A DNA stretch of 64,000 nt from Clostridiaceae bacterium. GTDB lineage: Bacteria; Bacillota; Clostridia; TANB77; CAG-508. The translations under genes were made by a program, and so were the position numbers. Location of the stretch: positions 108,010 through 172,009 of the forward strand of contig JAETPW010000003.1 in the NCBI GenBank assembly GCA_021771025.1, read 5' to 3'. The notes beneath the pieces are model-generated. The model was given only the letters and a program-made list of their open reading frames with translations, did no database searches and had not been told where the DNA came from. This document shows, piece after piece, positions 1 to 17,957 of the stretch (position 1 is its first letter; each line of letters starts with the position of its first letter).

Positions 1-1052
<1,052 letters not shown>

Positions 1053-1061
1053 TAAAAGGAG

Positions 1062-1100
1062 AAGAAGGTATTCAAAAGAGATTGAGTACCTTCTTTTTTT
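1062..1100 (+). terminator. Rho-independent terminator after groEL
   Basis: aagaaggtattcaa / ttgagtaccttctt stem followed by T run. Confidence 0.85.
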
Positions 1101-1407
1101 GAGTCAGTAAGTTATCATAAACTTGACTAAACAACAATACAAGATAAAAAAAAGAAGGATTAATCATTCTAATAGGAATTAATTTACAAAAATCAAAATG
1201 AAAACCACAAATCTCGGAAAACTAGGTATGGAAAAGAAAAAGAAGGAATGATATATTGACAAAGAAAAGTATAATACTAAAAAAACAATAATATCCATAT
1301 TAAAAAAAGAGAAATCAAACTATTGCTAGAAAAATAATGAATAAAACAAGCCAAAAGGAACAAAATATAAGAAAAATGGAAAAAAGCAAAAGAGGAGGAT
1401 AATTATA

Positions 1408-2781
1408 GTGAACGGTACAAAAAATGAAGCAAAAATGAAAAAGATAAAAGAATATAAAATGGATAGAGGTATTACACTAATTGCCCTAGTAATCTCCATT
1501 ATTGTTTTATTAATTCTAGCAGGGGTAACAATAGCAGCATTAACAGGGCAAAATGGAATACTAAGCAACGCTACAAAATCAAAAGAAGCAAACGAAAAAG
1601 GAAACGAACTAGACCTAGTAAAATTAGCCACATCAGCTTCACTAATTGATAGTCAAGGGCAAGCCATATCGTTAGCCGATTTACAAAACAACTTAAGCAA
1701 ACAAAACAGTAATGCCATAGCAAGCCAAGAGGGAGAAGGATTTATCGTAAAATTTAATGACTCAGGAAGAGAATATAAAGTAGACAAATATGGAAACGTA
1801 CAAGAAACAGCAGGAGGATCAGGAAATTTACCATCAACTCTTGATACAACACCATTCTTACCAGACGGATTCACCCAAAAAGAAGGAACGAATCTAGACA
1901 ATGGACTAACCATAACCGACGGAACCAATAGTTATGTATGGGTAGAAGTACCAAAAAGTATTTATACCACAGCAACATCAGAAACAGACTATACCAATAT
2001 AGAAGTCGATATGAAAACATATACTGCAGATTATAAAAGTGATACGTATAAAGACGAATATTATTCAGATGAAACAACAGGGCTAACACAAGCAGAATAT
2101 AACAGTTTAAAACAATCCATGTTAACTAGTGTATATAAGAATGGAGGATTTTGGATCAGTCAATATGAAATAGGAACAGACATACTAAGGACAAGTAGTT
2201 CAGCACCATTAACAACTCCAAAAAGTCAAGAGGGATTATACCCCTATAACTATGTAACCTGTACGCAAGCACAAGAATTAGCAGAGCAAATGAATCCCAA
2301 TAGTAGTAAATACAAAAGTAGTTTATTGTTTGGAGTACAATGGGATTTAACTTGTAAGTTCTTAGAAACGAAAGCAACGAATTTAGGGGAAACGCAAGAT
2401 GTAAGAAAAAATGTTATAAAAAGTGATAGTACAACATGGGGAAACTACTATAAAGCAACATTTGAAATAACCAAGGGAAAATACTCAAGCAATAGTGGTA
2501 GTAGTTATACAGATGTAAATGGAACTTATACAAAACCGAATTCAAGTGTATTATTAACAACAGGAGCAACAGAAAGAAACAGTAGCATGAATATCTATGA
2601 TTTCGCTGGAAATGAATGGGAATGGACTTTAGAATATTATACCAGCAACATCAACTATCCTTGCATTAATCGAGGTGGCTATTTCTTCAGCAGTGGAACC
2701 GTCTTTCCGGCCAGCAGTCGTAACAACAATTCGGATCCTTATAGTAGCGGCGACATTACGTTGCGTACGGCTTTATATTAG
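1408..2781 (+). CDS. Type IV prepilin-like protein with C-terminal CLec/FGE-like domain (candidate DGR target)
   Basis: N-terminal RG|ITLIALVISIIVLLILAGVTI class III signal-like segment; C-terminal YDFAGNEWEWT...RGG...R.ALY; AGGAGG upstream of GTG. Confidence 0.85.
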   Translation: MNGTKNEAKMKKIKEYKMDRGITLIALVISIIVLLILAGVTIAALTGQNGILSNATKSKEANEKGNELDLVKLATSASLIDSQGQAISLADLQNNLSKQNSNAIASQEGEGFIVKFNDSGREYKVDKYGNVQETAGGSGNLPSTLDTTPFLPDGFTQKEGTNLDNGLTITDGTNSYVWVEVPKSIYTTATSETDYTNIEVDMKTYTADYKSDTYKDEYYSDETTGLTQAEYNSLKQSMLTSVYKNGGFWISQYEIGTDILRTSSSAPLTTPKSQEGLYPYNYVTCTQAQELAEQMNPNSSKYKSSLLFGVQWDLTCKFLETKATNLGETQDVRKNVIKSDSTTWGNYYKATFEITKGKYSSNSGSSYTDVNGTYTKPNSSVLLTTGATERNSSMNIYDFAGNEWEWTLEYYTSNINYPCINRGGYFFSSGTVFPASSRNNNSDPYSSGDITLRTALY

Positions 2782-14529: not shown

Positions 14530-15402
14530 ATGGTCACACTAAAAGATTTTTTCGGAAATAAAATAGAAGTATATGCCTTTGTTGGACCATCAGGAACAGG
14601 GAAAAGTTACCGTGCACAAATGGTGGCCAGTGAAAAAGGAATTAATTATATCATAGATGATGGATTACTCATCCGCGAAAATGGAGTAATTGCAGGAGAG
14701 TCAGCTAAAAAAGCACCGACAAAAGTGGAAACGGTAAAAAAGGCGTTATTTTATAATGAAGCAGAAAGACAAGAAATCATCAAAGCCTTTCGTAAATATC
14801 GCCCTGATAAAATTTTGTTGTTAGGAACATCAGATAAAATGGTTGCCAAAATTGCTGAAAATTTAGGATTACCACCAATTACCGAAACAGTATATATCAC
14901 TGATGTAGCTACTAAACAAGAAATGGAAACAGCAAGAAGAATACGTATAACTGAAGGAAAACATGTCATTCCTGTACCCACTTTTGAAATCAAAAAAGAT
15001 TTTTCAGGGTATTTGCTTGATCCATTACAAATTTTCAAATCAAAAGGAAAAGGTCAAAAACCATACATTTCAGAAAAATCCATTATTCGCCCTACATTTA
15101 GCTATATGGGGAAATTCACGATATCTGATACCGTGTTTCGCCAAATTTTAGAATTCTTAGCCCAAAAGATAGAGGGAATTTATAAAGTACAAAAAACGCG
15201 TGTAGAAAATTATGGCGAAGGAGTAGGTCTTTACATGGAAGTCACCGTTGTGTATGGATCAAATGTAGTCAAAGAAATTAAAAACTTTAAAGAAAAAGCC
15301 AAAAAAGAAATAGAAAAACTAACAGCCATGAATGTAGTAAGTTTAGAAGTAGTCGCGAAAAATATTTATGTGCCAGAAAAACAAGAAGAAGTTAAATCGT
15401 AA
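14530..15402 (+). CDS. P-loop ATPase fused to Asp23/Gls24-like domain
   Basis: GPSGTGKS Walker A; C-terminal VVYG...IEKLTAMNVVSLEVVAK. Confidence 0.8.
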   Translation: MVTLKDFFGNKIEVYAFVGPSGTGKSYRAQMVASEKGINYIIDDGLLIRENGVIAGESAKKAPTKVETVKKALFYNEAERQEIIKAFRKYRPDKILLLGTSDKMVAKIAENLGLPPITETVYITDVATKQEMETARRIRITEGKHVIPVPTFEIKKDFSGYLLDPLQIFKSKGKGQKPYISEKSIIRPTFSYMGKFTISDTVFRQILEFLAQKIEGIYKVQKTRVENYGEGVGLYMEVTVVYGSNVVKEIKNFKEKAKKEIEKLTAMNVVSLEVVAKNIYVPEKQEEVKS

Positions 15403-15457
15403 GAACCAGCATAATACTAGTAAATTAGCCAAAAAACAAAATAGGGGGAAAAGAAAG

Positions 15458-16321
15458 ATGTCATTTGTGGTAGCCATTGATGGACCAGCAGGAGCAGGAA
15501 AAGGAACCATTACTGAATTAGTAGGTAAGCAAGTAGGACTAGTGAATATCGACACAGGGGCGACTTTTCGCTGTGTTACTCTAGCAATGATTAAGAATAA
15601 GATTAAGTTAGAAGAGGAAGAAAAAATAAAAGACCTATTAGCCAGTATTCATATTGACTTAAAAAAAGAAGAAGGAGAAGAAAAAGTTTATTTAGATGGC
15701 GAAGATGTCACAAAACAAATTCGTGAAAAACAAGTAAATGACTTAGTATCTCCAGTATCTACGATTAAAATCGTAAGGGACAATTTACTCCTACTGCAAC
15801 GCAAGATGGCAGAAGGAAAAGATGTCATCATGGAAGGAAGAGATATAGGCACAACGGTTTTCCCTGATGCACAAGTCAAAATCTATTTAACCGCAACAGC
15901 AGAAGAAAGAGCCAGAAGACGTGTAGAACAAAACAAAGAGAAAGGAATAGAAACCACCTATGAAGAGGCACTAGCCAATGTAAAAGCAAGAGACAAAATG
16001 GATTCAGAACGAAAACAAGCACCATTAAAACAAGCCGAAGATGCTATCTGCATCGATAGTACCCAAATGAATATCTCAGAAGTAGCCCGCGAAATCATCA
16101 AAATCATTGAACAAAAAAGAATAGAAAATGTATATGAAGTAGGATTACCATCATATCTGCAACATGACATAGACCAATTTATCGAAGGAAAAAAGAGTAA
16201 TTCAAGTGTTTTAGATTGCTATTTCGACGAATTATATGGTTCAATTAATTCAGCCTACTATTCAGATGAGATCACTGAAGATCAGGCCAATTACCTACGT
16301 CATAAATATCTATTTAAATAA
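15458..16321 (+). CDS. cmk: Cytidylate kinase with fused 65-aa C-terminal antitoxin-like domain
   Basis: AIDGPAGAGKGT, MEGRDIGTTVFPDA, YLTATAEERARRR; extension GLPSYLQ...ELYGSINSA...QANYLRHKYL. Confidence 0.93.
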   Translation: MSFVVAIDGPAGAGKGTITELVGKQVGLVNIDTGATFRCVTLAMIKNKIKLEEEEKIKDLLASIHIDLKKEEGEEKVYLDGEDVTKQIREKQVNDLVSPVSTIKIVRDNLLLLQRKMAEGKDVIMEGRDIGTTVFPDAQVKIYLTATAEERARRRVEQNKEKGIETTYEEALANVKARDKMDSERKQAPLKQAEDAICIDSTQMNISEVAREIIKIIEQKRIENVYEVGLPSYLQHDIDQFIEGKKSNSSVLDCYFDELYGSINSAYYSDEITEDQANYLRHKYLFK

Positions 16322-16345
16322 ATTAAGCCAAAGGAGGAGAGGAAA

Positions 16346-17260
16346 ATGGATTTCACCCCTTATCTACAACAAAATATACCTCGTTTTTATGGAGGAAGTA
16401 ATGGAAATAAACGTGCTATCCAGTTAGAAAATAATAATATCTATATGCTAAAATTCCCTCCTATTGCCAAAGATACACAAAATTTAAGTTATTCCAATAG
16501 TACTATATCCGAATACATCAGTTGCCAAATTATCGAAAGTATGGGGCTAGAGGTACAAAAAACAAGACTGGGAAAAGTGAACATAGAAGGAAAAGAAAAA
16601 ATAGTAGTAGCCTGCCAAGATTTTACCCAAGATGACAGTAAACTATATGAATTTGCGATGATCAAAAACGGATGTATTTGTTCTTCTCAAAATGGATACG
16701 GAACTGAATTATCAACGATATTATCAGCGATTGAAGAACAAACTATCTACCCACCAGAAAAAGTAAAAGACTATTTTTGGGATTTATTTATTCTTGACGC
16801 ATTTTTAGGCAATTTTGATAGGCACAATGGAAATTGGGGATTTTTGATTAACGAAAAAACAGGAGAAATAAAGCTAGCTCCCATCTTTGACTGTGGATCT
16901 TGCTTATTTCCCCAGTTAGATGACGAAATGATGGAAAAAATTCTTCAAGACGAAAAAGAAATGGAGCTGAGAATTTATCAATTTCCTAATTCAGCCTTAA
17001 AAGAAGAAGACAAGAAAATCAATTATTTTGGGTACATATCTAGCTTAGCTAACCAAGACACCAATGAAGCCTTAAAAAGAATATTTCCTAAAATCGAGTT
17101 AAAAAAAGTAAATTCAATCATCGAAAAAACGCCTTTTATTAGTAAGATTAGAAAACAATTTTACCAAGAGATATTAACCAAACGATACGAAAAAATACTA
17201 GAATACAGTTACCATAAATTATATATCCAAGAAAGCAAAGAGAAAGAAGGAATGAACTAG
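16346..17260 (+). CDS. HipA/CtkA-like kinase (putative toxin)
   Basis: YGGSNGNK, YMLKFP, SEYI, NFDRHNGNWG, APIFDCGS. Confidence 0.88.
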   Translation: MDFTPYLQQNIPRFYGGSNGNKRAIQLENNNIYMLKFPPIAKDTQNLSYSNSTISEYISCQIIESMGLEVQKTRLGKVNIEGKEKIVVACQDFTQDDSKLYEFAMIKNGCICSSQNGYGTELSTILSAIEEQTIYPPEKVKDYFWDLFILDAFLGNFDRHNGNWGFLINEKTGEIKLAPIFDCGSCLFPQLDDEMMEKILQDEKEMELRIYQFPNSALKEEDKKINYFGYISSLANQDTNEALKRIFPKIELKKVNSIIEKTPFISKIRKQFYQEILTKRYEKILEYSYHKLYIQESKEKEGMN

Positions 17261-17943
17261 TGGAAAAAAATCTACAAAAACAAGATAAACAAGAAAAACA
17301 ATTGACAGTACAAGCCTTTGACCAAAGCTCGAAAAAATTTGACCATCCAGAAGATTCATGGTGGAAAAAAGTACAAAGAAGGTTTGCTTGGAGCGTATTA
17401 AGAGGATTTTACCGTTTAGGTTATCGCCTAGAAACCCAAGGAGAAGAAAACATTCCTCGAGAGGGAGCATTTATCATTTGTGGAAATCACGTAGACTTCG
17501 TCAAAGTACCAGTCATTGTTCTATTTACGCCAAGAAAAGTCAATTTTATTGGAAAAGCAGAACTATTCAAAAATCCCATTTTAGCATGGCTAGGAGGACT
17601 ATTTGACGTCATTTCCGTCAAACGTGGAAAGCAAGATGTAGAATCCATGAAACGTTCGTTAAAAGTATTAAACAAAGGAGAAGGGCTAGGCTTATTTCCA
17701 GAAGGAACTAGGCGTGGATTAGAAAAAGGAGTCAAAGTAAAAAATGGAGCAGCCTTCATGGCCTTACGCACAGGAAAACCAATCGTACCAGTAGGTGTAA
17801 AGGTAAGTAAGCGCAAAATCATTTTAAACTATGGAAAACCATTAGACTATAGTAAATATCAATCCAAAACACCAGAAAAAGAAGTACTAGAAAAAGTAAG
17901 TAAAGAAATGATGGACACCATAGTTAAGTTGACAAATGAGTAA
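17260..17943 (+). CDS. plsC: 1-acyl-sn-glycerol-3-phosphate acyltransferase
   Basis: NH, KAELF, FPEGTR, PIVPV motifs; typical cmk neighbour; NHxxxxD appears degenerate (NHVDFVK). Confidence 0.85.
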   Translation: MEKNLQKQDKQEKQLTVQAFDQSSKKFDHPEDSWWKKVQRRFAWSVLRGFYRLGYRLETQGEENIPREGAFIICGNHVDFVKVPVIVLFTPRKVNFIGKAELFKNPILAWLGGLFDVISVKRGKQDVESMKRSLKVLNKGEGLGLFPEGTRRGLEKGVKVKNGAAFMALRTGKPIVPVGVKVSKRKIILNYGKPLDYSKYQSKTPEKEVLEKVSKEMMDTIVKLTNE

Positions 17944-17957
17944 AAATAAGATATAAT
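17929..17957 (+). promoter_or_regulatory. sigmaA promoter of typA
   Basis: TTGACA-17-TATAAT exact consensus. Confidence 0.85.

Follow-up and report, generated by a model that had tools for sequence, protein, structure and literature searches.

A CtkA/HipG-type kinase gene and a probable antitoxin domain fused to cytidylate kinase in the cmk-plsC operon of a Clostridiaceae bacterium

We analyzed 64,000 nucleotides (nt) of DNA from a Clostridiaceae bacterium (GTDB lineage Clostridia; TANB77; CAG-508; assembly GCA_021771025.1, contig JAETPW010000003.1, positions 108,010 to 172,009). We refer to this whole stretch as the window, and unless another contig is named, coordinates are positions within it. 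In the window, the gene for cytidylate kinase (Cmk) continues in frame into 65 extra residues, which we call the tail, and the next gene encodes a small kinase related to CtkA and to the HipG kinases. The tail and the kinase probably form a toxin–antitoxin module of the hipRG type, in which the antitoxin domain has become part of Cmk. The features of the locus are:

15458 to the stop at 16319–16321, + strand: cmk open reading frame with its tail (P0001), starting at ATG 15458, 287 amino acids (from the list of open reading frames and the sequence)
15458..16123, + strand: complete Cmk domain, residues 1–222 (PF02224, TIGR00017), the sole cmk found in the genome
16124..16321, + strand: tail (P0003) and stop, a three-helix domain homologous to the C-terminal domain of HipR, likely an antitoxin (from profile, model, and co-fold)
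16322..16345, + strand: 24-nt spacer with the Shine–Dalgarno-like AAGGAGGAG of the kinase gene (read from the sequence)
16346..17260, + strand: CtkA/HipG-type core kinase (P0002), 304 amino acids, putative toxin (from HipA_C, homology to CtkA, and catalytic motifs)

The Cmk part of the fused protein is a complete enzyme. The Pfam family Cytidylate_kin (PF02224) spans residues 5–219 of P0001 (E = 2.5e-71), and the TIGR00017 equivalog for (d)CMP kinase scores 240 bits (cut-off 135.55), with residues 2–215 aligned to positions 2–215 of the model's 217. The P-loop GPAGAGKGT is present (residues 9–17), and the protein qualifies as a (d)CMP kinase; it is the only cmk match in its own genome. In 18 relatives from the same genus, Cmk ends at the equivalent of about residue 220–223 of the window's protein, so the enzyme is whole in the window and the last 65 residues (16124–16318) are an addition at its natural C-terminus. 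The first-pass annotation of this DNA, which was made from the sequence and its open reading frames (ORFs), had described Cmk as reading past its usual end without a stop into 65 extra residues that have no start of their own. Both points are seen in the ORF listing and the sequence: the tail contains no methionine, we looked for an in-frame ATG within it and found none, and the neighboring ATGs are out of frame. A longer reading of the gene (317 amino acids (aa), from the ATG at 15368) was rejected, as it overlaps the upstream gene and is unused by related clusters. The tail has no match in Pfam, NCBIfam, PADLOC, or PHROGs, and Pfam finds no helix-turn-helix (HTH) family in P0001.

A fusion like this might arise from a sequencing, assembly, or gene-calling error that removed a stop or start between cmk and a separate small gene, and a read error is one of the things that the first-pass annotation had named as fatal to its proposal. 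A one-base error could in principle open such a frame, and related stand-alone genes are real (see below). However, the junction stretch is complete in 20 runs from seven studies. We compared contigs from four runs of four studies, among which the window's source sample may be included. In three of them, each from another study, 15400–17400 is present as 2001 unbroken nt with zero differing letters and zero gaps; the contig from the fourth covers 15400–17212. Furthermore, when we used the tail in a word-based protein search, four more clusters (at 90% identity) that consist of Cmk and the tail came up (P0004, P0006, P0007, and P0008; 287–293 aa). These are 97, 84, 71, and 64% identical to the window's protein overall, with a gapless junction, and their tails match the window's no less well than their Cmk parts do (100, 85, 77, and 71% identity versus 96, 83, 70, and 62%). 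The comparison with P0006–P0008 was of protein sequences. Because the contigs from several studies are unchanged and four diverged clusters have the same frame, a read or assembly error is excluded; the lack of a start codon in the tail also argues against an artifact, and we give that explanation hardly any credence. We found no further Cmk fusions in the other 337 genomes of the genus, nor in a metagenome scan, in which the tail's matches were all at most 67% identical.

The kinase gene begins 24 nt after the cmk stop, and its ribosome-binding site appears to be strong. Its product matches Pfam HipA_C (43.3 bits; cut-off 30.5) and contains the motifs GGSNGNK (residues 16–22), DRHNGN (158–163), and DCG (182–184). 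It also has all 29 of the columns that are invariant in a 92-sequence alignment of the family, including D158–G165 and D182. CtkA (PDB 3AKJ) is a full-length homolog (residues 2–291 of P0002 align to residues 5–289 of CtkA, E = 8.4e-84), and it is the sole match in the PDB to the profile of the 92 family members (1.4e-120). The family is large (6287 clusters at E ≤ 1e-10). In its motifs, its length (within about 280–320 aa), and its lack of the HipA N-subdomain-1, the window's kinase is a core Hip kinase of the CtkA/HipG type. It is not a canonical HipBA kinase: it has no N-subdomain, and the NCBIfam HipA-family model gives it 17 bits (cut-off 401). PADLOC's candidate defense model PDC-M03A matches residues 19–287 of the kinase (6e-32), and no PDC-M03 model matches the tail or an HTH-containing HipR. 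The kinase's TAG (17258–17260) overlaps the GTG of plsC by 1 base. Thus, the first-pass annotation was right about the spacing, the intact DRHNGN and DCG motifs, the overlap with plsC, and the likeness to CtkA, which extends along the full length.

To find relatives of the tail, we built a profile from seven tails (A1) and ran it over 1.84 billion representative proteins. This gave 669 clusters at E ≤ 1e-3, of which 306 were at E ≤ 1e-10, and the best 150 were mostly 60–130 aa long. When the 41 longer proteins among these 150 were run through Pfam, eight had an HTH in front of the domain. The tail is 54–64% identical to the C-terminal part of HTH proteins that are encoded upstream of kinases. 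The first-pass annotation had stated that the extension resembles a small helical domain encoded upstream of CtkA-like kinases and often fused to an HTH, and this was correct: the C-terminal domain of HTH proteins in gut Clostridia is homologous to the tail. In two other proteins (P0039 and P0040), the domain is at the N-terminus, and in P0013 it is partially duplicated in tandem.

In a scan with one genome per species, we found 354 loci with the domain, and we examined the best 80, which are nearly all from Clostridia (three are from Selenomonas). The domain's ORF is 111–170 aa in 56 of the 80, which is the size of an HTH plus the domain, and Pfam confirmed the HTH in seven of seven tested. 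The first-pass annotation had asked whether homologs of the extension are linked to HipA-like genes. They are: at 65 of the 80 loci, the domain is immediately followed by a CtkA-like kinase in the same orientation (intervals of -134 to +16 nt), and in 55 of these 65, the kinase's ORF is at least 291 aa. Another 13 loci have no kinase (two of these, L111 and L144, retain an N-terminal remnant of one), and two have a distant Hip-like ORF only. Among 80 metagenome loci, 55 have an adjacent kinase, three are at a contig edge, and 22 have no kinase.

The linkage is just as tight within the genus. We searched all 338 genus genomes and found the domain in 41 of them, at 47 places; it is in frame with Cmk in the window's genome only. 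A search at E ≤ 1e-75 for close relatives of the kinase gave 30 places in 28 genomes, and at 29 of these the domain is immediately upstream. At the one remaining place (G264), the kinase is truncated and spans residues 13–226. Conversely, 19 of the 47 places with the domain have no such kinase (three of the 19 are at contig ends). We also examined 19 domain loci of other genomes, which came from a search of 201 genus genomes. In 18 of them, the domain is a stand-alone ORF of 60–96 aa, and in one (L021, genome G131), it is fused to QueH. A kinase of at least 287 aa, 54–57% identical to the window's, follows the domain at 14 of the 19; the rest have short kinase remnants (two) or no kinase (three), and the genomic contexts vary. 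Overall, the kinase is virtually never retained where the domain is missing, whereas many copies of the domain persist with no kinase beside them. Such an asymmetry would be predicted for a kinase that does harm in the absence of the domain, and it is typical of toxin–antitoxin pairs. The two genes are adjacent, as type II pairs are, and orphan antitoxins occur while the toxin is rarely found without its antitoxin, apart from a separate clade of orphan kinases that we discuss below.

In relatives, an intact domain is commonly found next to a kinase that has decayed, and we considered whether the window's module is a decaying relic, that is, non-functional, with the tail and kinase as neutral passengers of the cmk operon. 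The module's lack of an autoregulatory HTH would fit with this. On the other hand, the kinase is full length, with every one of the family's invariant columns, and is preceded by a strong-looking ribosome-binding site, and conservation of the tail is no lower than that of Cmk. Also, a kinase cluster that is 72% identical to the window's kinase (P0160) and the fusion cluster P0008 (71% identical in the tail) both have 54,714 as the length of their longest contig, which hints that the pair may have been kept in a diverged relative. Given these observations, a relic seems quite improbable.

A model of the tail from AlphaFold2 is a three-helix bundle (mean predicted local distance difference test, or pLDDT, of 96.3). 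In a model of the full-length protein (pLDDT 92.1; predicted template modeling score, or pTM, of 0.78), the last helix of Cmk continues straight into the tail. We found no significant solved relative of the tail in the PDB by either sequence or structure. The look-alikes are chains of ribosomal protein S20 (best E of 0.24 by PDB sequence, TM of 0.74–0.78, and a VIA-align wide Z of 7.4), and this resemblance is at chance level for a three-helix bundle. As only a generic three-helix bundle is seen, we do not assign the tail to a fold family. A Stl-like fold was considered but gained no support: a Foldseek search against the PDB gave nothing at E ≤ 1e-3, and no Stl chain was among the matches shown. 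Matches in the ESM Atlas are unnamed clusters of 64–72 aa only (scores of 0.84–0.85).

The first-pass annotation had proposed co-folding the kinase with the extension, and the result supports binding. We co-folded the tail (96 alignment rows) with the kinase (90 rows used) in three runs, along with three controls. The interaction prediction score from aligned errors (ipSAE) was 0.87 in all three runs, while the best of the controls reached 0.01. The mark for this test is reached by 116 of 157 solved complexes and by two of 215 mismatched pairs; because we used our own alignments, these counts hold roughly here. The runs share at least 89% of their contacts, and the partner's pLDDT is at least 89. 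Because the tail has no solved relative, the co-fold's passing is not the recall of a known complex. On the tail's side, the predicted interface comprises residues 9–11, 28–49 (which hold the most conserved motif), and 63–65. On the kinase's side, it comprises residues 39–42, 117–120, F157, D158, H160–G162 (in the catalytic loop), 185–191 (behind the DCG motif), and 205–224. Residues 1–8 of the tail, where it is attached to Cmk, are outside of the predicted interface. The model supports binding of the tail over the kinase's active site.

Cmk is not the only protein to which this domain has been joined. The domain occurs alone (about 72 aa), fused to an HTH, or in frame with unrelated upstream genes. 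In three genomes, a complete QueH (epoxyqueuosine reductase) is fused in frame to the domain (G131, G257, and G035, at loci L021, L156, and L002; Pfam QueH E values of 2.4e-60, 6.6e-63, and 1e-57); G035 is a genome of another family, and the three junctions differ in length. At L002, the kinase is broken by one TAA. In G108 (L026), queH, the stand-alone domain, and the kinase are three adjacent but separate genes, which is a plausible intermediate towards the QueH fusion. In G306, the domain is fused to HepT (Pfam HepT, 4.4e-23), so that the toxin (HepT RNase) of one toxin–antitoxin pair bears the putative antidote domain of another. This locus (L157) contains:

2003..2314, - strand: MNT nucleotidyltransferase
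1444..2010, - strand: HepT fused to the domain
506..1426, - strand: CtkA-like kinase

Other partners, from the profile search and from metagenome loci, are peptidase S51 (P0052), UPF0047 (P0056), and DUF7695 (P0147). A histidine phosphatase is the partner in two diverged examples (P0110 and, at 1257–2051, L159), and no kinase follows the domain at L159. P0092 has an ABC ATPase fragment and half an HTH in front of the domain; P0042 has a weak, below-cut-off match to DUF6249 and reads as a membrane segment; and the partner in P0127 is metallophosphatase-like, with a GNHE motif but no Pfam match. Some further longer proteins with the domain have regions that Pfam does not assign to any family. 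Some of the metagenome fusion proteins could be assembly chimeras.

The variety of partners bears on whether the fusion couples the module to Cmk itself. In such a scheme, the tail would dock the kinase to Cmk, and Cmk would be its substrate or target, or the state of Cmk (its nucleotide binding, abundance, or degradation) would gate the release of the kinase, as a guard of pyrimidine-nucleotide metabolism or of the housekeeping operon under phage attack. Consistent with coupling, the fusion has stayed gapless down to 64% identity with the tail at least as conserved as Cmk, and it involves the genome's sole cmk. The kinase's family matches a candidate defense family (PDC-M03A). In the full-length model, the helix running from Cmk into the tail is confidently predicted (pLDDT 87–97, pTM 0.78), and the two parts may be rigidly coupled. 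Also, Gerdes, Baerentsen, and Brodersen (2021, mBio, PMC8262856) propose that phage proteins are sensed through HipR. But the partners are functionally unrelated (QueH, HepT, peptidase S51, histidine phosphatase, a membrane protein, and others), within the genus the domain most often stands alone, and the Cmk fusion is present in just one of 338 species genomes of the genus. Moreover, the predicted interface is made by tail residues 9–65 and the active-site region of the kinase. We therefore consider functional coupling to be unlikely. The first-pass annotation held that a toxin–antitoxin module had been grafted onto a housekeeping enzyme. As anatomy and as the likely mechanism, this part stands, given the homology, the linkage, and the co-fold. 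Its further suggestion that neutralization is tied to the level or state of Cmk, as a sensor of phage or nucleotide stress, is unsupported, as the domain is also found alone or on unrelated genes.

To see what the locus looks like without the module, we considered the rest of the operon and its counterparts in relatives. The genes on either side are:

14530..15402, + strand: upstream operon gene with a P-loop ATPase-like N-terminus and an Asp23-like C-terminus (Pfam Asp23, 6.2e-07; AAA, 1.8e-04)
17260..17943, + strand: plsC-type acyltransferase (Pfam Acyltransferase, 2.2e-22)

A match to Cmk is present in 59 of the 60 other genus genomes that we sampled; full-length matches are in frames of 219–256 aa, and the best identity is 68%. 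As the first-pass annotation had anticipated, relatives have cmk and plsC without the insert: plsC is directly after cmk in 25 of 29 loci. The Asp23-like ATPase gene precedes cmk in 21 of the 29 (73–86% identity), and typA is next wherever the locus extends that far, and the ancestral order is ATPase, cmk, plsC, typA. Because cmk and plsC are adjacent in relatives, the roughly 1.14 kb that encode the tail and the kinase are an insertion between these two genes in the window. We looked for direct repeats flanking the insert and found none, and there are no terminator-like sites on the + strand between cmk, the kinase, and plsC. The insert coincides with a mild dip in G+C content (0.29–0.33 versus 0.35–0.39). 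Two other features of the operon are worth recording. Across the genus, the ATPase/Asp23-like gene (14530–15402) is better conserved than Cmk (73–86% versus 55–68% identity). Just before typA, at 17929–17957 on the + strand, a perfect sigma-70 consensus (12 of 12 positions; TTGACA, 17 nt, TATAAT) lies over the last codons and the stop of plsC.

Where the two inserted parts came from is less clear from their relatives. We built trees of 82 kinases (with FastTree) and of 48 kinases (with the quick mode of IQ-TREE). The window's kinase is sister to the genus's clade of kinases linked to the stand-alone domain or to QueH (support of 92 and 93, neither starred). In the 82-row tree, kinases linked to an HTH are grouped apart (99, starred), and both trees place the orphan kinases in a clade of their own (100). 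The tail is closer to the HTH-linked domains (54–64% identity) than to the genus's stand-alone type (42–50%). The HTH may have been lost either before the domain was welded to cmk or during that event; both orders are compatible with the sequences.

We propose that a hipRG-type module lies between cmk and plsC and that its tail is probably an antitoxin domain that was opportunistically welded to Cmk and that neutralizes a CtkA-type toxin kinase. A two-gene module, with a CtkA-like HipG kinase after a HipR partner, would have been inserted between cmk and plsC. The partner would have lost its DNA-binding HTH, leaving the 65-residue three-helix domain to be translated as the C-terminal tail of Cmk. 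There it would bind across the catalytic loop and hold the kinase inactive, as a type II antitoxin domain. If freed, the kinase would phosphorylate an essential target and halt growth, for example as abortive phage defense or as addiction. With the module just downstream of a host gene, a small deletion or the loss of a stop could join the domain to that gene in frame, and such fusions would survive because the antidote stays expressed. After fusion, any truncation ahead of the tail would release the kinase. We judge that the weld was opportunistic and was then held by the need for the antidote, because the fusion partners are varied and a queH intermediate exists.

Several observations weigh against this proposal. 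First, kinases of about 285 aa that form a sister clade are encoded without a partner domain, both in this genome and in 20 of the 24 genus genomes sampled. These orphans are 41–47% identical to the window's kinase, lie in variable contexts, and are little diverged among themselves (end branches of 0.06–0.29 in the tree); as they have no partner, kinases of this fold are not always harmful alone. Second, the tail's likeness to HTH-linked domains and the kinase's grouping with the stand-alone and QueH-linked kinases appear to disagree about the route by which the fusion arose. Third, the fusion has lasted while its carriers diverged to 64% identity, as might equally be seen if the fusion had been selected for a function of its own. 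Fourth, there are no RNA runs among those listed with the stretch, which also counts in favor of a relic. Fifth, our search of the literature for HipG, HipR, or hipRG returned one relevant paper, the bioinformatic study of 2021, and no experiment on toxicity or on neutralization by HipR. Finally, CtkA itself, the sole solved relative of the kinase, is cargo of the integrative and conjugative element tfs3 and is described as acting on the host, with no partner or antitoxin reported in the parts of the sources that we drew on.

The orphan clade's representative in this genome (G000) is L013 (the others are L004–L012), and the genome has two more distant HipA-like ORFs that match the window's kinase weakly:

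contig 48, 1465..2331, - strand: orphan-clade kinase (L013)
contig 31, 895..2124, outside the window: HipA-like ORF of 409 aa (L014)
contig 3, 1186..2208: HipA-like ORF of 340 aa (L015)

A bolder version of the idea is that HipR's C-terminal domain works by itself as a portable inhibitor or dock of CtkA-type kinases, that it is repeatedly welded in frame to the C-terminus of upstream genes, and that its weld to Cmk is adaptive, placing a guard in a housekeeping enzyme. We find this doubtful. If it were true, the supply and fate of the antidote would be locked to the sole Cmk, and the kinase would fire once Cmk is shut down, degraded, or remodeled by a phage or under nucleotide stress. Even if the weld was opportunistic, the locus pinpoints the likely neutralizing part of the published HipR, namely the 65-residue three-helix domain that is predicted to sit on the kinase's catalytic loop, and the module here suggests that the HTH is dispensable. 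It points to an evolutionary outcome that has recurred, with host proteins that are unrelated to the module, in this case the sole Cmk, acquiring an antidote domain. It would also illustrate how an addiction module can become fixed in a core operon. The tail alone, Cmk with its tail, and truncated Cmk would make a simple test system for the control of CtkA/HipG kinases. It is also a warning for annotation, as an extension at the C-terminus of a housekeeping enzyme may be an antitoxin domain that was captured. We searched the literature for antitoxin domains fused to housekeeping genes, and none of the papers listed was relevant by title or abstract.

How does this module compare to known systems? 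As in hipBA, the (putative) antitoxin gene comes first, and the kinase shares hipBA's motifs for the catalytic loop and Mg binding (Pfam HipA_C), but the window's module has no HipB-type HTH dimer and its kinase has no N-terminal subdomain. In HipBST, the short Hip kinase HipT is neutralized by HipS, which is small and has no DNA-binding domain, and regulation (by HipB) is separate; this is reminiscent of a tail without an HTH. However, HipS resembles the N-subdomain-1 of HipA, whereas the tail is an unrelated three-helix bundle that belongs to another enzyme, whose gene precedes that of the kinase. CtkA (JHP0940) of Helicobacter pylori (PDB 3AKJ, 3AKK, and 3AKL) is homologous to the window's kinase over its full length except for its last ~35 residues, which are outside of the alignment and are said to resemble a possible secretion signal. 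In contrast to CtkA, the window's kinase is encoded within a housekeeping operon and has a partner domain.

The closest comparison is to hipRG. Gerdes and colleagues classified Hip kinases into ten families by gene context. The hipRG family combines a short core kinase, HipG (279–321 aa across the short families), with an upstream HipR, which is an HTH protein with Phyre2 similarity to Stl and a proposed antitoxin. In the hipRG rows of their Table S1, the kinases are 291–314 aa and HipR is 145–147 aa. Similarly, the window's kinase is 304 aa and has no HipA N-subdomain, and the upstream product ends in the same domain of about 65 residues: the tail has the C-terminal domain of HipR, given its 54–64% identity to the C-terminal parts of HTH proteins. 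A comparison by eye indicates that the proteins in those rows share the catalytic motifs and the conserved motifs of the tail, and proteins with an HTH and the domain next to kinases were recovered independently in our analysis. Unlike HipR, the window's protein does not have the HTH that defines HipR, and a complete Cmk is in its place; also, the portion of the paper that we cite makes no mention of the domain standing alone or being fused to enzymes. Thus, the hipRG pair was already known, and what is new here is that the HTH of HipR has been replaced by Cmk.

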